DNA from: an uncultured Gammaproteobacteria bacterium
Lineage (GTDB): Bacteria > Patescibacteriota > Patescibacteriia > UBA9934 > CAZDDW01
Assembly: GCA_965231015.1 (NCBI GenBank)
Contig: OZ246408.1
Coordinates: forward strand, 921,908-985,907
DNA length: 64,000 nucleotides
Direction of reading: 5' to 3'
This document shows, one piece after another, positions 1,261 to 48,158 of the stretch. The translations under genes and the position numbers were made by a program. Below the pieces are notes generated by a model. The model saw nothing but the letters and a program-made list of their open reading frames with translations, was not told the DNA's origin and ran no database searches. Each line of letters starts with the position of its first letter. The stretch's first letter is position 1.

Positions 1261-3837
1261 TTAAACCAGCGTTACACTCGCCACAATATCGCCCGCTTTC
1301 TTAAAACTCATTACTTTAACTCCCTGAGTAGCACGACCAAGCTTAGATACAGTCTTAAGCGCTGTGCGAATCACCTGCCCAGCCTCACTGACCACAAATA
1401 AATCCCGTTCATCCTTATCCTCTACTACATAAGCCGAGGTTATCTCACCGGTCTTGGCAGTAATATTGGCAGTTTTAATTCCACTTCCGCCACGACCCTG
1501 AACTTTATATTCTTTTAATTCAGTTCGCTTACCATAACCATTCTTCATCACAACTAATAACTGCTTATCGTCAGCGGTCACAATATCCATGCCCACAATA
1601 TGATCCTCGCCTTTGAGTTTTATCCCTCGAACCCCGGAAGCTGTTCGACCCATGGCTCGAACGTCCGATTCTTTGAAACGAATAGCTTGGCCTTTTGCTG
1701 TAGCCAAAACAACTTGATCTTTGCCGGTTGACCGCTTCACCCAAAGAAGGTTATCGCCTTCTTTAAGTTTGATAGCGACCAAACCTGAACTACGTACGTT
1801 ATCAAAATCCTTAAGTTCGGTCTTCTTGATAGTACCTTTACTGGTCACCATCACGAGATAATTAATACCTTTCATCTCATCAAGAGCGAGCGTTGCTGTG
1901 ACAGTTTCACCAGGCGACAGTTGCAAGAAGTTTACCAGTGCCTGCCCCTTGGCGGTTCGAGTTGATTCTGGAACTTCGTAAGCTTTCAGTTTGAACACCC
2001 GACCGCGAGTGGTAAAAAAGAGCAGATCCTTGTGGGTCGTGGTACTAAACACACGCTCAACAACATCCTCTTCTTTGGTCGTTAGTCCAGCCACTCCCTT
2101 TCCACCACGAGCTTGTGTACGAAAAGTTTCCGGTGGCAATCGCTTAATGTATCCCTCCTTGGTGATCATGACCACAGTCGGATTATCCGGAATCACATCT
2201 TCCATTTTAAAATCCTTCACCCCATGAGCCACTACATCTGTCCGACGTTCATCAGCATATTTTTCACGAATCTCATTAACCTCATCCTTGATAATTTGAC
2301 GCATCTTCTTTCTTGACTTCAGGATAGACTCCAATTCTTTGATAAGCTTTAACTTTTCTTTGTACTCCTGCTCCACCTTCAAGGCCTCAAGGTTAGCCAA
2401 CTGCTGTAAGCGCATCTCCAAAATTGCCACAGACTGACGTTCAGTTAACTTGAACTTTTTCATCAGGTTGGTTTTGGCCACGTCTTTATCTTTCGACTTC
2501 TTAATCGTGGCGATGATTTTATCAATTTTGAGAATTGCCAAACGCAATCCCTCCAAAATATGAGCTCGGTCCTTGGCTTTTTCTAGATCATATTCGGTTC
2601 TACGTTTAACTACTTCTTCCCGGTGCACTACATATTCTTCCAGAATTGACTTCAAATTTAAAAGCCGAGGCTGAAGTCCGCCTTCTACCAGAGCCACCAT
2701 GTTAACGTGAAAGGTGTCCTGAAGCTGGGTTTGCTGATACAACCGATTTAAAACTTTTTTCGGGAAAGCATCTTTCTTGAGCTCAATCACAATTCGCACT
2801 CCTTCCTTAGTTGACTCATCACGCAAATCCTTAATCCCATCTATCTTTTTTTCTCGCACAAGCGTAGCAATCTTTTCTAGGAGCGTAGCCTTGTTTACAA
2901 GGTACGGAATTTCGTGAACGATAATATTAAAGCCTCCTTTACGTTCCACAATCTCAGTTTTGGCCCGAGTCACAATCGGCCCTTTCCCCGTAGCGTAAGC
3001 CTGTTTGATATCATTAACATTATAAATAATTCCTCCGGTTGGAAAATCCGGCCCTTTGATAAACTCAACCAAATCATCAATGGTAGCGTCCGGGTTTTCG
3101 ATCAAGTGAGTCACCCCGTCACAAAGCTCGCCCAGGTTATGCGGTGGAATGTTGGTAGCCATACCAACCGCGATTCCTAAAGTTCCATTTAAAAGCAAGT
3201 TTGGCAGTTTGGCTGGCAAAACGGACGGCTCTTTATGACTTCCGTCAAAGTTTGGCCGCCAATCAACCGTTGCTTTTTCAATATCGAGTAACAGTTCTTC
3301 CGAAATTGTCTCGAGTTTTGACTCTGTATAACGGTAGGCGGCAGCTGAGTCACCATCGAGCGAGCCAAAGTTACCCTGTCCACGCACGAGCGGATAGCGG
3401 AAGCTGAAGTCCTGGGCCATACGTACAAGTGAATCGTACACAGCAGAGTCACCGTGCGGGTGATACTTACCAAGCACATCTCCAACAACCGTGGCACATT
3501 TCTTATACTTGGACGTTGAACGCAATCCTGTTTGCCACATGCTATACAAAATTCGTCGGTGTACCGGCTTCAACCCATCACGCACATCAGGCAATGCACG
3601 CGAAACAATCACACTCATGGCATAATCCAAATAACTGGTTTCCATCTCGCCCACGAGCGATGCTGGCTCTACCCGACCCTCAACAACACCTGTTGCTTCT
3701 TGTTCAACCAAAACTTCCGCTTCTGGTTTTTCCAAAGCCTTCTTTGCCTTCCCGGCCTTCTGGGCGTTCTTAATTGATTTTACTGGCTTCTTCAGAGCCT
3801 TCTTGGCCTTCCCGGCCTTCTCTTTCTTCTTCGGCAT
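1261..3837 (-). CDS. gyrA: DNA gyrase subunit A, with unusual Lys/Ala-rich repeated N-terminal extension
   Basis: [31 protein letters not shown]-terminal signature; C-terminal beta-pinwheel repeats; 858 aa. Confidence 0.95.
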
Positions 3838-4165
3838 AATTGTCTTCTGCCTCGTTATTTATTTCATTTAACACTGCTTCGGTCAGCACAGCTCCGGCAG
3901 CAGCTTCTTGTTGATCTCGATATTCTTCACGCACCCGCTCCACAAACGCATCCTCTGCTTCTTCTTTGGTTTCTTCAACTTCCTCTAAAATAGGCACAAA
4001 CGGCTCACCAGCTTCCTGAACCGTGGCTTGAATTTTAATTCCATGTTTAATGACCGCAAAAGAACCTGCGTTTAAAACATACCAGCCACCAACCACTCCC
4101 ACCATGGCCACTCCAAACAAAACCCAGAATAACACCATCTTTTTTGGTTCACCACTTGGAATCAT
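3770..4165 (-). CDS. hypothetical acidic membrane protein
   Basis: 131 aa; TM helix near N-terminus then E-rich tail; stop overlaps gyrA start. Confidence 0.45.
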
Positions 4166-29392: not shown

Positions 29393-30214
29393 CTACAACG
29401 GACTCGCGATATTGCGGACCGCCGGATTGGTCACATGCGTGTAAACTTGCGTCGTCCTGATATTCTGATGCCCGAGCAAAGCCTGCACATACCGCACATC
29501 AACGCCGTTCTCAAGCAGATGAGTAGCGAAAGAATGCCGGAGCGAATGAAACGTGGCCGGTTTTTTTATATCCGCGTGATTAAGCGCGTGCTCAAATATT
29601 TTCTGGGCCGTTCTTTTGGTAAGCTTGCCGCCGCGCTGGCTTTCGAACACCAGCGCGTCGCTGTCCCTGCCAAGACAAAGCACTCGGAGCGGTTCAACGA
29701 GCGAATCCGGCAACACACTGATCCGGTCCTTTTTGCCTTTGCCCTGCCTCACGAATACGGTTTTGCCCTCAAGATCGAGATCTTGAACGCGCACAGCCAC
29801 CGCTTCGCTGACGCGCAGACCGGCGGCGTAAGCGAGGCCAATTAAAGTCCGGTGCTTGAGGTTACGGATCGTCCCGAGCAGGCGCAAAATCTCATCGCGA
29901 GTGAGCGTACTCGGCAAACGCTTAGGCCGTTTAGCGTACGGCAATTTCAGGTCAAACGACCTCCCGAGCAAGTTACGCGCGTAAAACATAATCGCCTGCA
30001 AATGCAGATTAATGGTCGAAGCCGCCGCATCGCCATCATGCTTGGCCAGTAAAAACGACCCGAGCTCGTCATGGTCAACGCGATTCGGATCCGGATATTC
30101 CAAAAAAAATGCTTTTAGCGATCCCAGGTACGACTTTCTGGTCGCCGGACTGTAGTTTTTGAGCTTCAGAAAACGATCAGTCGCCTCCAGAGCCTCGGAG
30201 GTTGAAACAAACAT
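29393..30214 (-). CDS. tyrosine site-specific recombinase (Xer-like; candidate integrase of adjacent cassette array). ORF opens at 30349 but MFVSTSE start at 30214 is more plausible
   Basis: R-H-R-Y catalytic set: GLRVSEA (box I), HSLRHSFATHLL (box II), LGHQNIRTTQVYTHV; only about 90 aa between boxes so no IntI-specific insert. Confidence 0.8.
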   Translation of the reverse strand: MFVSTSEALEATDRFLKLKNYSPATRKSYLGSLKAFFLEYPDPNRVDHDELGSFLLAKHDGDAAASTINLHLQAIMFYARNLLGRSFDLKLPYAKRPKRLPSTLTRDEILRLLGTIRNLKHRTLIGLAYAAGLRVSEAVAVRVQDLDLEGKTVFVRQGKGKKDRISVLPDSLVEPLRVLCLGRDSDALVFESQRGGKLTKRTAQKIFEHALNHADIKKPATFHSLRHSFATHLLENGVDVRYVQALLGHQNIRTTQVYTHVTNPAVRNIASPL

Positions 30215-30240
30215 AAGATTATGCTTAAATAAACAAAAAT

Positions 30241-30260
30241 CTCCCCTCGATTGTGGGGAG
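30241..30260. promoter_or_regulatory. hairpin ctcccctcgattgtggggag immediately upstream of recombinase start; candidate operator/attI-proximal element
   Basis: perfect 6-bp stem 27 nt upstream of the ATG on minus strand. Confidence 0.25.
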
Positions 30261-30382
30261 TCTAAATTTAAGGTAACATAAGTTTGTGCTTTTGTAAAGG
30301 GGTTGTACCTCACAAATATCCCCAAGCCGCATAATCTACAGCATCCCATCCTTTATCCGAACTTTACTTCACATATAAACGA

Positions 30383-30421
30383 GTTGTGGCGAAATCGCTT
30401 CGCTCCTTCGCCACAACGGCC
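30383..30421 (+). repeat. 37-nt hairpin module gttgtggcgaaatcgcttcgctccttcgccacaac (copy 1)
   Basis: identical copy at 33059..33097; starts with GTTGTGG core. Confidence 0.7.
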
Positions 30422-30546
30422 GGCGGCTACGCCTTTTGTTGCGCTCGTCGCTACGCGACATCGCACAACAGTCAGCTATGCGGACATGGCCCGTCGACGA
30501 GCAAGCTCGTCTCCGGACCACGTCGCATAGCCGCCGGCCGTTATAT
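30411..30546 (+). repeat. attC-like site A (R'' CCACAAC, 15-bp arms ggccggcggctacgc/gcatagccgccggcc, R' GTTATAT then GAAAT)
   Basis: imperfect inverted repeat with AAC...GTT boundary cores seen directly. Confidence 0.6.
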
Positions 30547-30580
30547 GAAATAAATTTTTAAAAATTAACTCCGTAAAATT

Positions 30581-30937
30581 ATGAAACCACAAATTAAAGC
30601 GATATACATGTCCGTTAAGGATATGCAAAGAGCAGTAAAATTCTATGAGGAAATTTTTGATGTTAAAGTCTCTTCTTCTGATGAGAGGATGAGCTCTTTC
30701 GACTTTGAAAATATTTCCTTCCTTTTGTTTGATCCAAGTGCTGATGGTGAAGAGGCTTCAATTGGCAATAACGTTGTCCCAAATATTGAGGTGGAAGATG
30801 TTAATAAAATGTTAGATTTGATAAAACAGAAAGGTTGTGAGATTGTTATGCCATTGGAAGAAATCGATAAGTATTTGATTTTTCAAACAAAAGATACGGA
30901 AGGAAATATCATAGAATTTTACCAGATAGGCCGTTAA
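30581..30937 (+). CDS. VOC family protein (glyoxalase/bleomycin-resistance/dioxygenase fold), cassette 1
   Basis: 118 aa, betaalphabetabetabeta module pattern; MKPQIKAIYMSVKDMQRAVKFYEEIFDV. Confidence 0.7.
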   Translation: MKPQIKAIYMSVKDMQRAVKFYEEIFDVKVSSSDERMSSFDFENISFLLFDPSADGEEASIGNNVVPNIEVEDVNKMLDLIKQKGCEIVMPLEEIDKYLIFQTKDTEGNIIEFYQIGR

Positions 30938-30955
30938 TTTTTAAAAATTTACATC

Positions 30956-31100
30956 ACATAACAGCGTGTATCTGGTTCGGCAGATTTGACGCAATTAGAT
31001 TCAAAAGGAATGTCAAATCAGCCTCTCCCAAATTTCGCAAAAAACTATTAGATTTTCAAAGGAGTTTTTGCGAAACTTCAGATACACGCGGACGTTGTGG
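30956..31100 (+). repeat. attC-like site B (R'' ACATAAC, arms agcgtgtatctg/cagatacacgcg, R' GTTGTGG then CGAAAT)
   Basis: 12-bp near-perfect inverted arms immediately inside AAC/GTT cores. Confidence 0.65.
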
Positions 31101-31134
31101 CGAAATAATGAAAAATTCTTTTGCCCTATTGGGC

Positions 31135-31164
31135 AAATTTAATCGGGGCAATTTTTATTCATTT
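31135..31164. repeat. left copy of perfect 30-bp inverted repeat atttaatcggggcaatttttattcattttt
   Basis: reverse complement present at 32338..32367; brackets the ANT-like gene. Confidence 0.85.
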
Positions 31165-31173
31165 TTAACGCAT

Positions 31174-32349
31174 ATGAAGGGCATTAAAAAATACACACAC
31201 GAAGAAAGAGAAGCGGTTCTTTATGAAATGGTTCCGCTTATTAAGCGCAAGTTTGGAAAAAATCTTTTGGCTATTGCCGCGCGCGGATCATTTGCACGAA
31301 ACACAGATTTGCCATATTCCGATTTAGAGCTTTTTGCTTTCTTGAAAGAAATGCCACGCGGCCAGAAAAAACTTCCTTACGCAAAAATGCATAAAATCAG
31401 AAATGGCCTTTCTGTAGAGCTTATCTGGATTACTGAAAAAACATACATTAACGAAGTTAAAGAAGTTAACGGATCTTGGTTTGGTGTTGGCTCGGAAAAG
31501 CTCTTGCCTGTCTACGGTAAAAAATTCATTGACAAATTGAACCGACACAAGCCAAAGAATGTAAAACAAAAAGCTCTGGAACAAGCGGCGGCATTATGGC
31601 CGGGCATTTTCTTTTCAAGCTCTGCTGTTATAAAGATCGCGGAACAAAAAGATCATGAAAAGGTCGCCCTTGCCATGTATCACATGTTTGAAAACATTTT
31701 GAATTTTTTAGCATTTATCAACCAATCGCCATATTCAAGTAGCTCGCAAAAGATTATTGAATCCAAAAAATTCAAAATTAAGCCAAAAGATTTTTCAAAA
31801 CTACAACAACTGATACTTCATGGGGATTTTCGAAAATATACCGAGATTCAAAAATTAACAGCAAGCGTTGTTAAGGATCTAAAGGCATATCTCCAAAATG
31901 CAGGCTTTGAACCAAGCGAAGATCTTGTTAGTAAAAAACGACCCGACCAATTTGGTATGAAAGATAAAACGACTCGTTACGAGCAGGCCGTGGAGATATG
32001 GGAAAAGGTCCAAGAATCCACGACCAAAACCCTTAATGCCGCTGAAACAAAAAACAAAGAAGGTATGGCGACCGTTATTAATGACATGTTTTTTCAGTAT
32101 CTAAAAATTCTGTCCTGCCTGAATACAAAAACCTTAAGATTTTCACAAATCATCACCGACGCGAAAAAATTGAAATACAAACCGGCAGGATTCTCCAAGC
32201 TGATTAGAATTATCGAGAATGGAGAATACGGCCAATTTGTTGAGATCAAAAAAGTTGTCATGAGCGTTTTTGCTGGACTCGAGAGCAAACTTGAAAAGTT
32301 AGGATATGAATTCTATCAAGATAATGTAGATCCGAATAAAAATGAATAA
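31174..32349 (+). CDS. aminoglycoside 4'-nucleotidyltransferase-like (ANT(4')/KNTase family) with tandemly duplicated C-terminal helical domain, cassette 2 (ORF opens 31108)
   Basis: EEREAVLYEMVPLIKRKFGKNLLAIAARGSFARNTDLPYSDLELFAFL closely parallels KNTase REERMKIVHEIKERILDKYGDDVKAIGVYGSLGRQTDGPYSDIEMMCVM; residues about 185-300 and 305-413 are paralogous. Confidence 0.75.
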   Translation: MKGIKKYTHEEREAVLYEMVPLIKRKFGKNLLAIAARGSFARNTDLPYSDLELFAFLKEMPRGQKKLPYAKMHKIRNGLSVELIWITEKTYINEVKEVNGSWFGVGSEKLLPVYGKKFIDKLNRHKPKNVKQKALEQAAALWPGIFFSSSAVIKIAEQKDHEKVALAMYHMFENILNFLAFINQSPYSSSSQKIIESKKFKIKPKDFSKLQQLILHGDFRKYTEIQKLTASVVKDLKAYLQNAGFEPSEDLVSKKRPDQFGMKDKTTRYEQAVEIWEKVQESTTKTLNAAETKNKEGMATVINDMFFQYLKILSCLNTKTLRFSQIITDAKKLKYKPAGFSKLIRIIENGEYGQFVEIKKVVMSVFAGLESKLEKLGYEFYQDNVDPNKNE

Positions 32350-32367
32350 AAATTGCCCCGATTAAAT
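32338..32367. repeat. right copy of perfect 30-bp inverted repeat (overlaps ANT-like stop codon)
   Basis: aaaaatgaataaaaattgccccgattaaat = reverse complement of 31135..31164. Confidence 0.85.
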
Positions 32368-32403
32368 AATTCGCTATCGCGAATTAAGAATTTTCATTAC
32401 ATC

Positions 32404-32490
32404 GTACAACAGCGTGTATGAGACTACGGCTTTTTACAAAAGCCTCCGCCCAAATTGCTACGCAACTTCGCATACACGCGAACGTTAACT
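32404..32490 (+). repeat. attC-like site C (R'' GTACAAC, arms agcgtgtatg/catacacgcg, R' GTTAACT then GAAAT)
   Basis: seen directly; 87 bp. Confidence 0.65.
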
Positions 32491-32720
32491 GAAATTTGCC
32501 TTAATTACTTTCATAAATAACGTATGCATTTACTCAAAAAAATAATATCACCCATACTGTACGTAGCTTTTCTCGCCCCTGTCTTCATAGGCACTATTGC
32601 CGTTATTGCATTTTAGAATTTACTATTGGTCTGTCGAGTTTTATTCTAACAGGACTCCCAGAAGTATTTATCTCATTTATTGCAATAGGCGGTTTATTAT
32701 TTTGGTTAGCCAACAAACTA

Positions 32721-32945
32721 ATGACGGGACTCGAAAATCTACTCAAACCAAATATACTCGATCACCTTCGTCAATCATCTTTGTACTATTATACAGTAGT
32801 TTACGCATTAATTGCGCTAATACGGTCTGGCTATCACGGCGGTCTCGGAGAAGCATACATGCTAATTGGATTGGCAACTTCAGTATGGGCGATTATTGTT
32901 AATGCAATTTTTTTGTATAAACGACGTAAGGCAAACATCAGCTAA
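32721..32945 (+). CDS. small 2-TM membrane protein, cassette 3 (possible frameshifted longer form from 32524)
   Basis: 74-aa ORF; upstream frames encode MHLLKKIISPILYVAFLAPVFIGTIAVIAF and ...EFTIGLSSFILTGLPEVFISFIAIGGLLFWLANKL which join with a 1-nt shift near a tttt run at 32611. Confidence 0.4.
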   Translation: MTGLENLLKPNILDHLRQSSLYYYTVVYALIALIRSGYHGGLGEAYMLIGLATSVWAIIVNAIFLYKRRKANIS

Positions 32946-33065
32946 CACTGCGTATGCGGTTACGGCTTGCTCCGTGCCTCCGCAAGCCTCCACCCATATT
33001 TGCCACTGCTACCGCTTCGCGATATTATAGCAGTGGCAAACATCGCCTATTCACGGACGTTGTGG
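32940..33065 (+). repeat. attC-like site D (R'' AGCTAAC overlapping stop codon, internal stems ccactgcta/tagcagtgg and ggcttgc/gcaagcc, R' GTTGTGG then CGAAAT) followed by hairpin module copy 2 (33059..33097)
   Basis: seen directly. Confidence 0.55.
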
Positions 33066-33152
33066 CGAAATCGCTTCGCTCCTTCGCCACAACGGCCAAT
33101 AAATTCTTTTTATTTATAATTTGGGGGAGTTTTATTCTCGCTTCGTAAAAAT

Positions 33153-33674
33153 ATGTCAAAATCACTGAATATAAAATTTGAAAAAGCTGTGCGAATTTTG
33201 TCGGAATATATGCCACCGTCTGATGAAAATAGCAAAAAGCCTGTGATGTTTCACGACATACGCGTTGGCGTGTATTTATATGAAAATGGTTATTCAGAAG
33301 ATGTTGTTTTGGCTGGCATTTTGCACGATACGATTGAATGGTCTGGTGCTAACGAACAATTATTGAGAGATGAATTCGGCGACAATGTTGTCCGCTTGAT
33401 TTTTGCAAGCACCAAAGATGATACGATTGTAGACAAGGTGGAAAAAACAAACGAACTGATCCAAAGGTGTGTGCAAAACGGGCAAGAAGCTCTTATTGTA
33501 AAAACCGCTGATATTATTGATAGCTTCAAGTGGTATGCCAGCCAAAACAACGAGGACGAACTGAAAAACCATTGTGTAAAGAACGCCAACGCTATTTTCA
33601 AATTTAAACCGGAAGATTTTGACGATAAAATATTTGATGAGCTTAAAATCTGGCAAGAAAGATTTGCGGTATAA
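33153..33674 (+). CDS. HD-domain metal-dependent phosphohydrolase, cassette 4
   Basis: H...HD...D motif: FHDIRVG and GILHDTIEW; 173 aa. Confidence 0.7.
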   Translation: MSKSLNIKFEKAVRILSEYMPPSDENSKKPVMFHDIRVGVYLYENGYSEDVVLAGILHDTIEWSGANEQLLRDEFGDNVVRLIFASTKDDTIVDKVEKTNELIQRCVQNGQEALIVKTADIIDSFKWYASQNNEDELKNHCVKNANAIFKFKPEDFDDKIFDELKIWQERFAV

Positions 33675-33729
33675 AACCGAATAAAACTTCCCCAAATACA
33701 TTAAGGAAGGAAGAATTTATTGGCACATC

Positions 33730-33819
33730 GGACAACACGGCATATCCGGTTCAAGAATTTTTGTTCCTCCGCCAGCCAGCGGATACACAAAAACTTCGGA
33801 TGATGCCGATACGTTAGGC
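33730..33819 (+). repeat. attC-like site E (R'' GGACAAC, arms acggcatatccg/cggatgatgccg, R' GTTAGGC)
   Basis: seen directly; 90 bp. Confidence 0.6.
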
Positions 33820-33846
33820 GCAATATCATTTTAATCAATTTTCCTT

Positions 33847-34443
33847 ATGGCAGACACAATTCTACTAAACAACGAAGCTTATCATATTAGCGAGGACGAC
33901 CTTCCTTGCCTCATTCATTATGCACCGAAAGCTGGCGGGTCTCATTTCTCAGTAGCAATGGTCGCTGATTTGTTTTTGCGTGGCTCAAAAATTTTGTTTC
34001 TTACAGCATATCCAATGGCCAAGGATAATTTTTTACAACAGATTAAAGGAGAAGAATCAAAAACTGCTTTTATCACTAATGCGAGTCAGCTTAACACTGA
34101 TGCACAAGCAATTATTCTGGAAAGTGGCAACGAAAAGCTATTTCTGCAAGCGGTTGAAAAGCTGGATGATCTAAACGAGCGTGTCGTGCTTGTAAAAAAT
34201 ATAGAAGTGTTCAGCGACGCAGTTTTTGAATCTTGTTTGAAACTGCAAAAAATTATCCTTTCCGGCAACTTAGACGAGTGCTCAATGAAAAAACAAATCA
34301 GCGAGAAGCAATATAAAACGACTGTAGTTTTCAGCAAGTCAGAAACTCCATTAAAAGTCGAGCCACCAGAGCTGGAAAAATACAAAGGTTATCTTTGGAG
34401 CGACGGCAAGGAAGGTCTAGTATCAGTTCAAATGGAAAATTGA
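33847..34443 (+). CDS. hypothetical protein, cassette 5
   Basis: 198-aa ORF beginning 28 nt after R' core. Confidence 0.5.
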   Translation: MADTILLNNEAYHISEDDLPCLIHYAPKAGGSHFSVAMVADLFLRGSKILFLTAYPMAKDNFLQQIKGEESKTAFITNASQLNTDAQAIILESGNEKLFLQAVEKLDDLNERVVLVKNIEVFSDAVFESCLKLQKIILSGNLDECSMKKQISEKQYKTTVVFSKSETPLKVEPPELEKYKGYLWSDGKEGLVSVQMEN

Positions 34444-34503
34444 TTAAAATGATACTCTTCGCCCGCCCTTCGGGACGTTGCACTCGGGCTCGACCTGCGG
34501 CGC

Positions 34504-34620
34504 GCCTAACACAGAATATGCGGTTTCACTCCCGTTGGTCGCTACACCCATATTTGCCAGAGGTCGCCCTTCGGGCATATTATACCGCTGTCAAACATCG
34601 CATACTGCGGAACGTTAGGC
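34504..34620 (+). repeat. attC-like site F (R'' GCCTAAC and R' GTTAGGC perfectly complementary; arms cagaatatgcg/cgcatactgcgg; then GAAAT); possible extra degenerate core GTTGCAC at 34477
   Basis: seen directly; 117 bp. Confidence 0.7.
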
Positions 34621-34671
34621 GAAATAATTTTCGGGGGCTACGTAAGATAACTTTTATTTACTTTAAACAAT

Positions 34672-35319
34672 ATGTCCAAAGTAATGAATCCAAAAATCAA
34701 AATCAAAGAAACTGCACTTCTTGTTATTGATGTCACTAACGCATGGGCTCATCCAACTTGCGAGATTAAAAAGTGGGATGTTACATTTGGGAAAATCCGC
34801 AAAATGGTCCCAAAACTCCAGAAATTCATTAAAGATTATCAATCAGTAGGTGGTAATGTTATTTACATAAAAAGCACACCTTGGGATAAGAAACATTTAG
34901 CCAAAAATCTTATTGAGTTTTACAAAGATCCTGCGGTTTGTTTTTATTCAAGAAATATTTATTCAGACAAAGTCAGAAAGTTTTCAGATGAATTTTACAA
35001 AATAAGTCCTGAAAAAAATGATGTTGTTCTTGAAAAAAACAGTTATGATGCTTTTGTTAATCCACAACTCAATAAGATTTTGAAAAAGAAGAAAATTAAG
35101 TATCTTATCCCGACCGGAGTTTTGGGAGATGGTTGTGTACACGCAACAATTCAGGGCGGATTTTCCCAAGGATATAATTATCTCATTCTAAAAGATTTAG
35201 TTGAAACAACAGATTTACCAATCAGACAAAGATTGATAAAAATGATGAGAGAATTCTATTGGCCCATGCTTTATGGAAAAACTATCAATGCTAAAAGTTT
35301 CTTTGATTTTGTGGAGTAG
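34672..35319 (+). CDS. isochorismatase-family cysteine hydrolase, cassette 6
   Basis: ALLVIDVTNAW (catalytic Asp region) and LIPTGVLGDGCVHATIQGG (catalytic Cys). Confidence 0.75.
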   Translation: MSKVMNPKIKIKETALLVIDVTNAWAHPTCEIKKWDVTFGKIRKMVPKLQKFIKDYQSVGGNVIYIKSTPWDKKHLAKNLIEFYKDPAVCFYSRNIYSDKVRKFSDEFYKISPEKNDVVLEKNSYDAFVNPQLNKILKKKKIKYLIPTGVLGDGCVHATIQGGFSQGYNYLILKDLVETTDLPIRQRLIKMMREFYWPMLYGKTINAKSFFDFVE

Positions 35320-35390
35320 AACGCCCCCGAAAATTACTTGCTCACTTCGTTCGCACCCCGCTGCGCTCTCCTCCCGTTGGTCGTCGGATC

Positions 35391-35455
35391 ACTTAACAAG
35401 GATTATGAGGAAAATGGCTCGGCTCGGCATTTTCCTCATAATCCTGACGTTAGGA
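35391..35455 (+). repeat. attC-like site G1 (R'' ACTTAAC, perfect 18-19-bp arms aaggattatgaggaaaatg/cattttcctcataatcct, R' GTTAGGA)
   Basis: seen directly; 65 bp. Confidence 0.7.
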
Positions 35456-35529
35456 CGCCATCGCGAGCTACGCTCGCTCTCGTCGTCCGCCGGTGGCGGC
35501 CACTTCGCATCAGTCGCAGCCCGTTATGT
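35456..35529 (+). repeat. GC-rich palindromic repeat G2 ending GTTATGT GAAATAA (same end-class as site A)
   Basis: last 30 nt align with 30517..30553 (tcgcatNagNcgcNgcc GTTATRTGAAATAA). Confidence 0.55.
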
Positions 35530-35866
35530 GAAATAACTAAAAATATATTACTTATAATTAAACATAACGATATGCCAAATCTAATGGACATATGTGAGTC
35601 TTTAGCTCAAGAAGGAAGACTTGCACAAAACTACGTATAATTTCAAAAAACCGTAAAGGATAAAGGAGGTAAGGCCAAGTTTGGAGAATTATCAAAGCTA
35701 TCTGAAAAACAAATGGAAATTTTACTCGATCTTATTAAAGAAGGAAATTGGCCCAACCAGAAAGGTTAGGTCAGCTGTTTACCAGCCGACAATTGCGACC
35801 ACAACTTGGGAATCTAATCACAAAGATTCCCTTTTTTTATTTCTAAAAAAATTGTATAATGGCCTT

Positions 35867-36403
35867 ATGAAATGGAAAAAACTAAGCTCTAAAATAGTTT
35901 ATAAAAACCCTTGGTTACAGCTAAGGGAAGATACAGTAATTCGCCCTGACGGCAAAAAAGGGAAATATGGTATTGTTGAACGGCCGCCTGTAAATTTTAT
36001 CATCGCTTTAGACAAGGGGGGATCAATTTTTTTTATTAAAGAATACAGATATCCAATAAAAAAAACTATCTTACAGCTACCAGCTGGCACCACGGATAAA
36101 AATAAAAGTGCTCTAACTTCCGCCAAACAAGAACTTTTTGAAGAATCAGGATTAAAGGCTAAAAATTGGAAAAAGATTGGTAAGTTTTATATCGGCCCGG
36201 GACACGAAAGTATTTACGCCAATGTATTTCTAGCAACGGAACTAATTTTAGTAAAAAATAAATTGGATCGGCCGGGAGATGAGTTAATATTTAAAGTCAT
36301 AAAGTTGCCTATTGTAAAAATCAAACAATTAATAAAGTCTGATAAAATTGAATGTGGTATAACGCTGGCCGCTTTAAATTTATATTTTTCAAAAAATAAA
36401 TAA
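35867..36403 (+). CDS. NUDIX hydrolase (ADP-ribose pyrophosphatase-like); ORF opens at TTG 35681 preceded by strong SD aaaggaggt
   Basis: Nudix box TSAKQELFEESGL; typical N-terminus MKWKKLSSKIVYKNPWLQLREDTV; TTGTATAAT extended -10 at 35854. Confidence 0.7.
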   Translation: MKWKKLSSKIVYKNPWLQLREDTVIRPDGKKGKYGIVERPPVNFIIALDKGGSIFFIKEYRYPIKKTILQLPAGTTDKNKSALTSAKQELFEESGLKAKNWKKIGKFYIGPGHESIYANVFLATELILVKNKLDRPGDELIFKVIKLPIVKIKQLIKSDKIECGITLAALNLYFSKNK

Positions 36404-36423
36404 TAAATATAAGTAAATAAAAA

Positions 36424-36465
36424 AGAGGGATCAAAATTATCATATTCTGGTCCCTCGTATTTTTT
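36424..36465. terminator. bidirectional terminator between NUDIX and radical SAM genes
   Basis: agagggatca...tggtccctc hairpin with aaaaa before and gtatttttt after. Confidence 0.6.
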
Positions 36466-43392: not shown

Positions 43393-44878
<1,486 letters not shown>

Positions 44879-44971: not shown

Positions 44972-45000
44972 TCCTCCTTCGCTAAAGCTTCGGAGGACAG
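44972..45000. repeat. 29-nt hairpin repeat copy 2 in 16S downstream spacer
   Basis: identical to 38193..38221. Confidence 0.75.
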
Positions 45001-45325
45001 GCAAAGACCGCCATTTGACGGTCTTTTTGATTTAACTTTTCGAATTTTTATGTATTGTCGGTAATGTTCGAGCTCTGATTCATTGCGAATATTACGGTCG
45101 TGGAAATTTCGTTGCCAAATTTTGATACCTGGTATCTCGAACCTGACAATACGCGTCACAGAAGATTTGAATGATTGAATAATTTGGCCAAGTGATGGTT
45201 GTTTCTGAACCGAATTGATGTTGTTTCGATATTTATTATTTCTAAACACAAAACTCCGCCAAAGGCAGGGCTATCAAATTTTCTTTGCCGGCCCAAAGAA
45301 AACCGGACCATATTTAAAACGAAAA

Positions 45326-45354
45326 GCGGGGGCAGATGGTGTGTCTGCCCCCGC
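45326..45354 (-). terminator. rho-independent terminator of 815-aa ORF
   Basis: gcgggggcaga...tctgcccccgc; on minus strand followed by ttttcgtttt. Confidence 0.5.
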
Positions 45355-45372
45355 ACGTTGCGTAGATAGGTC

Positions 45373-47820
45373 TCAGGTTTTCGCCGGACCTGAGTTACTG
45401 GAAGGATCATTGTCGTCGTCGGCCGAGTTGCCGCGACGCTTGGACGTGGACTCCGAACCGAGTGAACTCGACTCCTCGATCGAGCCGGAGTCGCCGTAGA
45501 CCGGCAACTCTTGAGCTTCAGTACCGTACTCGGGCATCCCCTCAGTCGTAGCCGCGGCCATGCTGGCCGAGTCATCAGGCTCGTCTTCGTCCGGATCAAC
45601 CAAGGATTGTTCCGAGGTATCCGGCTCGCCTTCGAGCTCGATGCTGCCGTCCGGATCGTGATACGACTCCTCGTCCGAGGGAACAAGCGCGATGCGTTGT
45701 TCCTGACTCGGCGTGCCAAGCGTAGTGTCCTCCCTCACACTGCCCTCGTCGATCTCCTCGGCCACGTCCGTGATGGGCGGTGGCGTGGGATCGACCATGA
45801 CCGGTGCCTCGACCTCTCGGTGCGAAAGCCCGGAGATGTCACGGGTTGGTGGAGGGGTGTCGACCGCTTCGTCCACAGTATCGAGATGAATCGGTGGAGC
45901 CGAATCTCCGACACTCGACTCGTCGTCTTCGTCCTCCGGACACCGACTCGGTCGCTCCTCGGTGGTATCACCCTCGAGTTCCGACTCCGGTTCAATTCCC
46001 GGTTCCGGAATTGGAATGCCGTCCTCGATCGCCTGCAGGCTGGCCGAAAGCGGTATCTCGGGCAGCTTTCCCCTGAAGCGAGGATGCTGCGGCGGCTTGG
46101 CCTCCGGGTCAGACGCATCAACGGTCTGCTCGGAAGGGAGATCCGAAGTGGTGAGCATCTTGAACTCATCAGACTCCGCCTCGTCTCCCTCACCTCCGGA
46201 CGGATCCGAGCTACTGCTCGAATCCGACTCATCAAACGACGAGGGCATGCTCATCATGGCAATCTCCTCGTCGGAGTTGGGCGGACCGTCATCCCGGAAG
46301 GCCTCTCCCTCTTCGTACTCGTCCAGTTCCCCAGCCGGAATGGCCGGTGGTGGAGCGGGTAGTTGCACGAGGGTGAAGTTGATCTTGGTAAGATCAAACT
46401 CTCGGGAGGTGATCTCGGCCTCGATCCTCATCATGGCTTCAACCATAGCCTCGCACAAGTCGATACTGCGGTTGATCGCGATCTTCTGAGCATCTGTGAA
46501 GAAGTCAAACACCTCACTGGCTTCGCCCTGCGGCAGAGCCAGATACACGGCCATGGCCGCGTTATCGAGGCATGCCAACTCTTCGAACTGACGCCGCGAG
46601 GTCGCGGTCGTGGTGCGACCCACGTGCTCGATGATGTCTGCGTGAGGCTGACGTACCGTAGCATGGTACAGGTGGAAGGCATAACGCGCGAACTCGTCGA
46701 GCTCGGAGCATTGACTGTCGGTGAGGGTCTGCTCCGGACTCTGCCGGCCAAGGATGCGCACGATGTCCGCCGGACGGATCATACGCAGATCCATCTGCCG
46801 GGCCACCCGAGCAAACACGTCCGGGTTGTGCTGGTACACGCGGCGCAGGAACTCCACGAGCTCCGGCGCCGAGTAGAACTCGAACGTCCAGACGAGCAGG
46901 CGTACCCACGTATTCAGGAGACGTGGTGGCAGCTCCTGGGGAGACCAGAACGGTTCACCCTGGGAGATGTACATGGCCGTACGGATAGTATCCGACCAAG
47001 GCACGTGCACAGCTGTCACAGCCGGCCGGATTCCGAGAGCCGGATCGATCCCGATCTCGGCCATCACCTGACGGTAGGCGTGATCGACCCCCATGAGGTC
47101 GTACCCCTGGGTAGCAAACACGAAACCGTTTAGATCCCCTTCCTGGTGCAAGAACGGGCTCACCGCCTTGAAGGGCTGGTGTAACTCTGCGGCCTGCAGG
47201 AACGAGACCCGCGTTTCTTCACTCGGTGCAGCGAGCGCCGTGAAATGGCGGGTCATCTCCGGGGATTGGATCCGGGCGAGCGTCAGCACAGCGTCGTCTT
47301 CCGTGTACACCCCAGTGCCGAACCGTCCCGTTGCAGCGTACCCGGGCAATTCCCGCTCGGTCATGATCTCCCGAATCCAGCCGGTCATTTGCCGGTTGAA
47401 CTCCTCGGGCTTCAGCGCCCCGGTCGACTGATCGATCGACATCATGGCGATGTACTCCAGCAGCTGACCAATGGCCGCCTCCTGAAGCTGCATGATGCTA
47501 GCGATCTCGCGGGCCTCGCGCCGGCGGTTCGTATCACGAATCAGCTGGGCTCGCAGGAAGCGCATGCGCTTGGCCTGCTCACCAATGAGGTTGCGATAGA
47601 AGTCCGGGAGTTCGATTCCCTGCTGCTCGGCCAGTCGGTACACCAGATCCGAGAACTCGTGATCCGGATCCCCGGCCGGGCGGTGCGCGATGATGCGCGG
47701 GTCGATAAGCGGTCGGGCACCGTTGATGACCCCGAGCTCCTTGAGGGCCTCGACGAGGTCATCGCCGAGGTAGTGCCGATATACGGCTTCCACTTCTTCG
47801 TTTCTGTCCTGCTCCAACAT
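45373..47820 (-). CDS. hypothetical 815-aa protein in about 63% GC island; folded N-terminal about 500 aa plus about 320-aa acidic S/D/E/P-rich disordered C-terminus
   Basis: single long minus-strand ORF spanning the island with its own terminator; plus-strand ORFs are Arg/Leu-rich antisense artefacts. Confidence 0.6.
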   Translation of the reverse strand: MLEQDRNEEVEAVYRHYLGDDLVEALKELGVINGARPLIDPRIIAHRPAGDPDHEFSDLVYRLAEQQGIELPDFYRNLIGEQAKRMRFLRAQLIRDTNRRREAREIASIMQLQEAAIGQLLEYIAMMSIDQSTGALKPEEFNRQMTGWIREIMTERELPGYAATGRFGTGVYTEDDAVLTLARIQSPEMTRHFTALAAPSEETRVSFLQAAELHQPFKAVSPFLHQEGDLNGFVFATQGYDLMGVDHAYRQVMAEIGIDPALGIRPAVTAVHVPWSDTIRTAMYISQGEPFWSPQELPPRLLNTWVRLLVWTFEFYSAPELVEFLRRVYQHNPDVFARVARQMDLRMIRPADIVRILGRQSPEQTLTDSQCSELDEFARYAFHLYHATVRQPHADIIEHVGRTTTATSRRQFEELACLDNAAMAVYLALPQGEASEVFDFFTDAQKIAINRSIDLCEAMVEAMMRIEAEITSREFDLTKINFTLVQLPAPPPAIPAGELDEYEEGEAFRDDGPPNSDEEIAMMSMPSSFDESDSSSSSDPSGGEGDEAESDEFKMLTTSDLPSEQTVDASDPEAKPPQHPRFRGKLPEIPLSASLQAIEDGIPIPEPGIEPESELEGDTTEERPSRCPEDEDDESSVGDSAPPIHLDTVDEAVDTPPPTRDISGLSHREVEAPVMVDPTPPPITDVAEEIDEGSVREDTTLGTPSQEQRIALVPSDEESYHDPDGSIELEGEPDTSEQSLVDPDEDEPDDSASMAAATTEGMPEYGTEAQELPVYGDSGSIEESSSLGSESTSKRRGNSADDDNDPSSNSGPAKT

Positions 47821-47924
47821 TGTGCCTTTCCCCCTGGCTGTTGCATGGTTGAAAATTCAGTTTTAAAAGAAGTTCGACCGCTCTCCGAGGAGGGCGGTCG
47901 TTGAGAGTTGTTGTGGCCGGCTAG

Positions 47925-48158
47925 TTAGCTGGCCAAGGCGACGACCTGCTCGGCCTCGCGACACAGCGCGGCGGGGAGCATGCCCCTGATGCGCCGAGCG
48001 CTAGACGTGAGCGTTGTCGCTCGGGTGTGCGTTCCAGAGAACGCGGCCCGTCCGATGTCACCACCGGCCGGGATCACCGTCACGACAGTTCCGTCGCTCT
48101 GGCGGATCTGCTTGGGGGCATACTTGCCCACACGCGGCTTGATGGTGGCGTCCATCGG
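47925..48158 (-). CDS. small hypothetical protein in high-GC island (start at MDATIKPR with GGAGAGGAGAG RBS)
   Basis: ORF 47925..48206; RBS upstream of internal Met. Confidence 0.4.
   Translation of the reverse strand, partial: PMDATIKPRVGKYAPKQIRQSDGTVVTVIPAGGDIGRAAFSGTHTRATTLTSSARRIRGMLPAALCREAEQVVALAS

Follow-up and report, generated by a model that had tools for sequence, protein, structure and literature searches.

An integron-like gene-cassette array beside an IntI/XerA-like tyrosine recombinase in Patescibacteria

The recombinase locus and its eight units

A 64,000-nucleotide stretch of contig OZ246408.1 (GenBank assembly GCA_965231015.1), hereafter the window, carries a minus-strand tyrosine recombinase gene (29393-30208), a core site (30366-30395) and then eight plus-strand units, each of which terminates in a structured AAC...GTT site. 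An initial annotation had described the locus as an integron-like cassette array beside a divergent tyrosine recombinase in a genome resembling those of the Candidate Phyla Radiation (CPR), and content turnover among relatives, cassettes shared between species and a complementarity that defines the units all support that description. The recombinase matches Pfam Phage_integrase (E = 5e-46), the palindromic elements bounded by ...AAC and GTT... are seen behind each plus-strand open reading frame (ORF) in both sequence and folds, and the host belongs to the Patescibacteria, the relatives of the recombinase in a homologue search being all named Patescibacteria/CPR. The GC content of the cassette genes is 32-39%, against ~44% for the genome and 51% for the recombinase gene, and DHODH/TrmD form a conserved flank in both the window and locus L003, described below.

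The sites follow a shared plan, ACATC-N4-AAC-A-(L'' ..TAT..GG)-TTC-(hairpin 1)-CTCCACCCAAATTT-(hairpin 2)-AAACTTC-(L')-RAAC-GTT-N4-GAAAT, with outer arms R'' (on the AAC side) and R' (on the GTT side). AAC and GTT are invariant in 42 sites and the four adjoining bases are variable across the family; the RYYYAAC/GTTRRRY consensus is not kept, and the GTTRRRY cores of the initial annotation reduce to GTT/AAC, as GTTGTGG, GTTATAT, GTTAACT, GTTATGT and GTTAGGA in the window do not fit and only GTTAGGC does. Nor are the interiors unrelated, as had been supposed, for they have the conserved motifs TATCTGGTTC, CTCCACCCAAATTT and AAACTTC in common. A covariance model, R1, was built from the 42 sites; its E-values are rough. 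In the list of features that follows, the junction G of G↓TT (↓ marks the junction) lies at 30383, and each unit is given as ending at the G of a G↓TT.

29393-30208, minus: tyrosine recombinase of 271 aa, counted from the probable start codon (R..K..HxxR..H..Y residues; PF00589, E = 5e-46)
30241-30260, minus: GC-rich hairpin and T-run, 5' of the probable recombinase start (terminator-like scan)
30366-30395, plus: attI-like double-stranded core, ACTTCACATAT-AAACGAG↓TTGTGGC-GAAAT, an inverted repeat (identity with L003; 34-locus consensus)
30384-30540, plus: unit c0, a 'compound' unit without an ORF, ending in site A (R1 match 30458-30551, 35 bits, E = 1e-5; fold)
30541-31094, plus: unit c1, VOC/glyoxalase ORF 30581-30937 (Pfam Glyoxalase, E = 3e-10) and site B 30951-31106 (R1, 78 bits)
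31095-32484, plus: unit c2, 413-aa nucleotidyltransferase-like ORF 31108-32349 (Pfam/NCBIfam) and site C 32399-32495 (R1)
32485-33059, plus: unit c3, small membrane-protein ORF 32721-32945 (ORF list) and site D 32935-33071 (R1)
33060-33813, plus: unit c4, HD-domain ORF 33153-33674 (Pfam HD_4) and site E 33725-33824 (R1, 58 bits)
33814-34614, plus: unit c5, 198-aa ORF without assigned function 33847-34443 and site F 34499-34625 (R1, 80.5 bits)
34615-35449, plus: unit c6, isochorismatase-family ORF 34672-35319 (Pfam Isochorismatase, E = 2e-21) and site G 35386-35461
35450-35523, plus: unit c7, ORF-less remnant ending in a 3' half-site (regular-expression match at 35523; fold)
35524-36440, plus: distal region with a 22-aa ORF, a terminator-like hairpin 35808-35831, a NUDIX gene 35867-36403 and a final hairpin (ORFs; terminator scan)

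Where at least seven single-gene units had been counted there are thus eight, two of which (30384-30540 and 35450-35523) lack an ORF. The VOC/glyoxalase, HD, isochorismatase and NUDIX assignments stand by Pfam, and the protein called ANT(4')-like is a distant relative of KNTase_C/ANT(4')-I (65.8 bits against a cut-off of 350). ORFs start 14-94 nt past GTT rather than 25-55 nt, and 237 nt past it in the case of the small membrane-protein ORF at 32721, whose stop codon falls within R'' of site D; the sites measure 76-156 nt rather than 65-145 nt. Site G is short, with a perfect 18-bp stem (inverted repeat I2; R1 32.5 bits, E = 4e-5), and the half-site of c7, ACTTCGCAT...CCC↓GTTATGTGAAAT at 35523-35534, is not found by R1. 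The NUDIX gene, a NUDIX by Pfam that had been put forward as a possible array member, has no site behind it. No terminal site was found in the distal region 35524-36440, of which the GC content (0.33) is similar to that of the cassettes, and the NUDIX stretch is either a last, site-less cassette or flanking DNA. An Rfam search found no known RNA family in the array.

Unit c0 consists of an R' half, an 11-nt loop, an exact reverse complement of R' (to 30421), a GC-rich stem and site A, and its start (30383-30420) is duplicated in the first 38 nt of c4 (33059-33096). Such 'compound' or empty units (in the window, 30383-30551 and 33059-33096) also occur in the arrays of L075, L045, L082 and L030, with the same layout of an R' half, a short loop (often GCTTCGC), an exact reverse complement of R' and a GC-rich perfect stem that abuts AAC/GTT without a bulge; empty cassettes, scars of inverted insertion and intermediates of cassette genesis are all possibilities. 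Within c3 (32525-32945), the 74-aa membrane-protein ORF is preceded by a 30-aa ORF beginning at 32525 and by others that overlap in different frames, which suggests a broken gene, the frameshifted remnant of a longer one starting near 32525.

Cassette boundaries, content turnover and family-wide association with the recombinase

Comparison with a sister genome bore out the expectation of the initial annotation that cassettes would vary beside a fixed flank. Locus L003 (GCA_018812725.1), with a recombinase 89% identical to that of the window, has the same DHODH/TrmD flank and is identical up to ...TACTTCACATATAAACGAG↓TT (AAACGAG↓TT), past which its content differs: a 254-aa gene and the site belonging to it, then a three-gene DnaJ-like/TPR/Mrr unit that ends in another site. 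As L003 has an identical left part and diverges past GAG↓TT, we place the crossover between G30383 and T30384. The core recurs in 34 loci, 85-310 nt from the recombinase start, with the consensus AWTTCRNATA-NAAACGA↓GTTNNNNGAAAT (that is, NAAACGA↓GTT-N4-GAAAT). Its layout is that of a 28-bp Xer-type core, with two arms of ~11 nt as partial inverted repeats (right TTATGTGAAAT, left ..TCGCATA) and a 7-nt centre (AWTTCRNATA N AAACGA G TTNNNNGAAAT), and the arms resemble those of Escherichia coli dif (TTATGTTAAAT / GCGCATAA). From the L003 comparison and the 34-locus core, an attI-like site with entry at G↓TT appears to lie beside the recombinase gene, as in integrons. A metagenome scan for the exact junction 23-mer returned only one unrelated low-complexity contig (L087). 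Three loci (L016, L060 and L061) keep the attI-like core and have no R1 site within the 2-10 kb upstream of the recombinase; they may represent an In0-like state, or a core with a role of its own.

The variable bases of the sites identify the unit that moves. Across 69 consecutive pairs of model-defined sites, the four variable bases of R'' were complementary to the post-GTT bases of the preceding site at 3.22 of 4 positions (35 of the 69 perfectly), compared with 1.86 for the post-GTT bases of the same site, 1.77 for those of the following site and 1.79 ± 0.12 at random (0 of 5000 permutations reached the observed value; Wilcoxon p = 5e-9). A version of the own-R'' test with a loose R' regular expression was not significant and picked up spurious motifs, and strict-motif and model-defined sites were used thereafter. 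The bases after GTT are therefore the 5' end of a cassette and pair with the R'' of that cassette's own site, which places the crossover at GTT and makes the unit one of integron type. Each cassette thus completes its own site with its own 5' end, and content varies among relatives, as for mobile units.

Cassettes are also shared. Over its first 326 nt, unit c5 is 86% identical in nucleotides to a cassette lying 9.7 kb into the array of an Uhrbacteria locus (L018) with a recombinase ~54% identical to that of the window. A stretch of 1015 nt whose start coincides exactly with GTT is 85% identical between loci L030 and L054 (2542-3570 in L030 and 1846-2870 in L054, upstream-region coordinates). 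The same cassettes occupy different array positions in different species. In an exact-protein look-up, the VOC protein of the window was not on record, and the c5 protein was found only on contigs of the same population, one of which starts inside the 38-nt duplicate.

The clustering of the sites at the array does not arise by chance. The regular expression GTT[AG]N3-4[CG]?GAAAT gave seven plus-strand matches in the window, all within 30383-35534, and an unfiltered R1 search of both strands of the 64 kb gave seven matches at E ≤ 4e-5 (two of them outside the seed), all on the plus strand between 30458 and 35461, with the next-best match at E = 0.9. We then drew on 80 species-representative Patescibacteria loci with recombinase relatives (48-58% identity over full-length matches and 60% for one partial match), spanning ±10 kb only and including Uhr-, Peregrini-, Nomura-, Morani-, Kerfeld- and Buchananbacteria, WWE3, CPR3 and others. 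Over 81 loci (1.02 Mb), R1 returned 118 matches at E ≤ 0.01, and 118 of 118 lay upstream of the recombinase on the opposite strand, 81 of them outside the seed alignment. Where a locus extended 700 nt or more upstream of the gene, it had at least one site in 42 cases out of 47; arrays reached 11 sites per 10 kb, and the median gap between sites was 643 nt. A recombinase with an RKHRHY active site, divergently transcribed, adjoins the array.

The cargo is diverse and accessory, with 113 Pfam families in 112 proteins, including methyltransferases, GNAT, NUDIX, radical SAM, VOC, isochorismatase and LD-carboxypeptidase proteins, as well as defence functions (a cyclase of the cyclic-oligonucleotide-based antiphage signalling system (CBASS) type, restriction enzymes, AbiEii and SoFic).

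The same site family occurs on phage contigs (L089, L091, L092, L093 and L094). In L091 (IMGVR_UViG_3300028595_000036), ten R1 matches fall within 2.1 kb (1624-3890), directly 3' of a gene for a terminase-like protein of 776 aa that has an intein-like insert; this array begins at an attI-like core (CAATGCGTATAAAAAGA↓GTTAGATGAAAT) behind a TTGACA-17-TATGAT match, and its ORFs are short (75-103 aa), with 3' ends that the sites overlap. The examined stretches of the phage contigs contained no recombinase homologue.

Folding of the sites and identity of the recombinase

The sites are hairpin-forming, attC-like imperfect palindromes, with R''/R' and L''/L' boxes, as judged by the invariant AAC/GTT and by covariation. 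Compensatory changes occur in 9 of the 12 L-box pairs, and L-box covariation was 0.485, compared with 0.163 in shuffles (0 of 500 reached it) and 0.04-0.09 in controls with slid partners. Among 112 sites, the spacer between AAC and L'' is 1 nt in 102 and that between L' and GTT is 4 nt (usually RAAC) in 83, so the extra bases lie on the arm carrying the bottom-strand AAC. Extrahelical bases on the L'' arm are absent from these 112 sites and the L box is otherwise regular. Extrahelical bases of the attC kind, which in attC sit on the arm opposite the bottom-strand AAC (PMC5027507) and which the initial annotation had anticipated, are therefore replaced here by a 3-nt bulge on the other arm.

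The two strands are not equivalent. Counts of C-GNA-G triloop hairpins, which belong to the highly stable d(GCGAAGC) class of DNA mini-hairpins, were 19 for the bottom strand and 0 for the top. Folding stability favours the bottom strand in 98 of 112 sites (mean -2.33 kcal/mol, p = 8e-16), and top-strand GC skew is -0.14; both bottom-strand stability and negative GC skew have been reported for attC (PMC5027507). RNA UNCG tetraloops, considered as an explanation of the CTTCG/CTACG apexes, were rejected, as the top strand had none of the C-UNCG-G type on a stem of 3 bp or more. A subfamily of sites has a sigma-70-like match (TTGCCA, 17-18 nt, TATTAT) within hairpin 2, aimed at the downstream cassette (sites D and F of the window, 33000-33028 and 34554-34583; also L008, L040, L057, L073 and L078), and such sites might supply promoters along the array.

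Inverted repeats with promoter-like matches facing the next gene would also be expected of invertons (promoter switches), or of terminator or regulatory hairpins in a fixed operon, governed by the neighbouring recombinase. Each element is indeed an inverted repeat of ~25 nt around 40-150 nt, and covariation alone cannot separate a hairpin from two identical, inverted double-stranded sites. Immobile elements of this sort are nevertheless the least probable reading that we weighed: close relatives differ wholly in gene content past a precise junction, species share cassettes at different positions, the outer variable bases match across the gene and not across the element, arm spacers of 1 and 4 nt are incompatible with recombination between two equal double-stranded cores, and no T-run lies behind the sites.

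The recombinase itself bears on whether this is simply an integron. Its ORF extends mechanically over 29393-30349 on the minus strand, and the true start is probably the methionine at 30208, because homologues are 270-275 aa long and the hairpin and T-run lie at 30260-30241. That hairpin sits between the array junction and the probable start codon; it may be terminator-like or regulatory, and insulate or regulate the recombinase gene. The 120 homologues among the matches listed are 255-324 aa long, most of them 268-278 aa, and the catalytic R, K, HxxR, H and Y columns are invariant in the family alignment. The best NCBIfam profile is TIGR02249, the integron integrase, at 205 bits against a cut-off of 265 and with the match in two stretches, and PRK15417 scores 140 against 435. 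All Xer profiles also remain below cut-off (XerA_Arch 188 against 220, XerD 168 against 330, XerC 167 against 335, XerS 67 against 267), so by these profiles the enzyme is not an orthologue of XerC, XerD, XerA or XerS; XerA_Arch matches over the full length. The closest structural neighbours are VchIntIA (2a3v) and then archaeal XerA, with XerD ranking 27th.

The domain that defines integron integrases (PMC9668308, PMC4792948) was sought as the IntI-specific additional domain, the I2 helix region around patch III, following the IntegronFinder / Messier & Roy definition. The alignment to VchIntIA skips chain residues 178-241 while the query advances only from 222 to 242; IntI1 has 12+19+11 = 42 residues more than six family members, corresponding to the IntI-specific region, with 36-39% identity outside the insertion; and the AlphaFold model of the recombinase (predicted local distance difference test score, pLDDT, of 84) has no extra helix. 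The recombinase is an IntI/XerA-like enzyme without the ~42-aa IntI-specific domain.

A canonical integron, with a bona fide IntI and attC sites that have diverged in a CPR host, would account for the layout of divergent recombinase, core and co-oriented, promoterless-looking cassettes, for the invariant AAC/GTT and crossover at G↓TT, for TIGR02249 as top-scoring profile and VchIntIA as top structural neighbour, and for the attC-like strand stability and skew (PMC5027507). The reading is excluded by the missing domain (~42-43 residues fewer than in VchIntIA and IntI1), by the features of the sites and by the sub-threshold profile scores, and we hold it to be very improbable. The homologues are short, the sites lack extrahelical bases on the L'' arm and bulge on the opposite one, their flanking pentamers and interior motifs are conserved, unlike those of attC, and R1 did not detect the attC sites of dfrA1 and aadA1 when run on a class 1 integron.

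A second reading starts from the distribution of the enzyme. The recombinase family is widespread in CPR, has been classed as Xer-related 'Cand' and is assumed to be the housekeeping Xer of the group (PMC8138268). It might be the CPR dimer resolvase and the core its dif, with the cassettes as hijacking elements similar to integrative mobile elements exploiting Xer (IMEX) or as modules like pdif. The inverted-repeat core with arms of ~11 nt and a 7-nt centre is what this predicts, the core is kept without a detected site in the three loci named above, and in CTX-phi a Xer enzyme without I2 uses a folded single-stranded site (PMC4792948). Against it, a dif site should mark a switch in GC skew, and skew was higher upstream than downstream in 9 of the 18 loci that have flanks of 6 kb or more on either side, several loci being strongly skewed with the same sign on both sides and the window profile also lacking a switch; the test is weak, as flanks span 10 kb only and skew in CPR is not validated. 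Flanking skew was positive in 8 and negative in 10 of the 18, indicating no preferred array orientation relative to replication. The recombinase also falls below the XerA, XerC and XerD cut-offs, the sites are long structured hairpins and not 28-bp dif copies in alternating orientation, and the arrays are large and strictly co-oriented. We regard this second reading as unlikely, if less so than a canonical integron; the two roles are not exclusive, as one enzyme could do both jobs.

Elsewhere in the window, just past the 16S rRNA gene (43394-44878), ~3 kb (45000-48000) have a GC content of 54-62%, against ~44% for the genome, and both strands carry long overlapping ORFs, the minus-strand ORF at 45373-47820 (815 aa) among them. 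This stretch had no Pfam match and no Rfam family, and 23S rRNA was not detected anywhere in the 64 kb.

A probable cassette platform built from different parts

We consider it likely that the locus houses a sedentary gene-cassette platform in the chromosome, integron-like in its working but assembled from different parts. The analysis establishes the cassette anatomy, the position of the crossover, the pairing constraint and strand asymmetry of the sites, the variation in content, and the strictness with which the sites accompany the recombinase throughout the family; catalysis by the recombinase, a single-stranded substrate and replicative resolution are inferred.

In the mechanism that we propose, the recombinase, Xer/IntI-like and without the I2/IntI-specific domain, would bind two substrates: the double-stranded core beside its own gene (AyTTC-N4-A, ~7 nt, TT-N4-GAAAT) and the folded cassette site of ~75-210 nt. 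The folded site would mimic the core through an R box, in which ACATC-N4-AAC pairs with GTT-N4-GAAAT, and through an L box of ~11 bp with conserved TAT-CTGG / CAGATA, parted by the conserved asymmetric bulge of 1 nt against 4 nt (usually RAAC). Core and folded site would present the same layout of outer pentamer (AyTTC/GAAAT), four free bases and AA↓C..., the 5' arm of the site bottom strand, ATTTC-N4-AAC-GTNN-L, running colinear with the core bottom strand, ATTTC-N4-AAC-TCGTTT-TATGT-GAAGT. One strand would be exchanged between G and TT of GTT, equivalent to AA↓C on the bottom strand, the likeliest strand to fold, and a cassette would then extend from TT-N4-GAAAT through the gene to the G of its own site. 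As the arm beside the core centre is always of the GAAAT type, exchange is expected at the R' end, as in integrons. The junction would probably be resolved by replication, as in integrons and CTX-phi integration, since the central regions of sites differ mutually and from the core, making two-strand exchange unlikely. We speculate that the 3-nt bulge may do the job of I2 and extrahelical bases as a pair, blocking the second cleavage and setting orientation.

Several observations weigh against the platform as we have drawn it. The seed sites were picked by motif and an arm-pairing filter, which inflates the percentage of the L box that is paired (94%); the filter does not inflate the column-wise compensatory changes or the 81 new hits. 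Mispairs in the sites comprise 30 G.T and 31 A.C, favouring neither strand as the folding strand. The homology between L030 and L054 stops at R'' and not at R', so that the same ORF is joined to two site types, and exchange may also occur at the R'' end or by a double-stranded route, or site interiors may be replaced. Contigs end less than 700 nt from the recombinase gene upstream in 34 of 80 loci and downstream in 3 of 80, an excess that can fit repeats or strain variation and is not used as proof; one Logan contig (L098) starts inside the 38-nt duplicated module, for which reason the ends of Logan contigs at the junction cannot be read as strain variation. The array could exploit a near-universal CPR recombinase assumed to be a housekeeping Xer, that is, a dimer-resolution enzyme. 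Finally, cassette excision, circular cassettes and recombinase activity are predictions from sequence.

Among known systems, sedentary chromosomal integrons (the Vibrio superintegron with VchIntIA) come closest in organisation. They have a divergent tyrosine recombinase, an adjoining core and co-oriented, mostly single-gene cassettes ending in palindromes; AAC/GTT triplets, crossover at G↓TT and an R'' complementary to the 5' end of its own cassette; a more stable bottom strand and negative top-strand GC skew; and diverse accessory cargo, with sites homogeneous within and between arrays and content varying among relatives. In contrast, the recombinase described here lacks the I2 domain, and its sites lack extrahelical bases near L'', carry a 3-nt bulge on the arm with the bottom-strand AAC, and have an extended R box (ACATC/GAAAT), interior motifs and two internal hairpins without RYYYAAC/GTTRRRY; the host here is also a member of the Patescibacteria.

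At dif, CTX-phi and IMEX use XerCD, without I2, to recombine a folded single-stranded hairpin by a single strand exchange with replicative resolution (PMC4792948, PMC9226527). CTX-phi is a phage genome hijacking the host XerCD at the terminus, without a cassette array, whereas the CPR recombinase gene is linked to its array, with no terminus signature, dozens of cassettes and one site family. The pdif modules of Acinetobacter are likewise small gene modules bounded by Xer-type half-palindromic sites, and the L030/L054 homology, which ends at both inner ends of the flanking sites, is reminiscent of them; pdif sites, however, occur on plasmids as simple double-stranded sites of 28 bp, alternating in orientation, without long covarying hairpins, a linked recombinase gene or a single entry site. 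Archaeal XerA, to which the CPR enzyme is similar in full-length profile (XerA_Arch, 188 bits) and structure, resolves dimers at dif. Archaeal integrons (Ghaly et al. 2022) are also cassette arrays outside the classical hosts, but their IntIs carry the IntI-specific domain and their attCs are found by the standard attC model (PMC9668308); as 6 IntIs were reported for 539 attCs in 75 archaeal genomes (PMC9668308), most archaeal arrays are also without a detected IntI.

IntegronFinder surveys do not mention CPR integrons or arrays (PMC9024848), and our full-text literature search, which was not exhaustive and leaves an earlier description possible, found none of integrons or cassette arrays in Patescibacteria/CPR. 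Escudero et al. knew of no Xer-family enzyme with such a system and posed the 'chicken-egg paradox' of I2 and attC (PMC4792948).

We tentatively suggest, at somewhat less than even probability, that Patescibacteria and at least some of their phages own an 'I2-less integron' lineage, in which a Xer/IntI-like recombinase would capture cassettes through folded sites free of extrahelical bases, and which might be ancestral to classical integrons or have been invented independently. In the ancestral case, attC-like sites can precede the I2 domain, which would answer the 'chicken-egg paradox' (PMC4792948). Integrons are defined by the IntI-specific domain together with attC sites bearing extrahelical bases, and the descent of that pair from a Xer-like ancestor is a recognised question (PMC4792948). 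A cassette platform that appears to run without either makes it testable in a natural system, and its compact conserved sites and small recombinase could serve as a recombination tool. Surveys relying on integrase profiles would miss this whole class of cassette platforms, and the same may hold for archaeal arrays without IntI. If such a lineage exists, a major path of gene exchange would have been overlooked in a group that accounts for a sizeable part of bacterial diversity, and the CPR, with their tiny genomes and poorly known mobile elements, would gain a dedicated gene-capture locus with a cargo that includes defence and modification enzymes.

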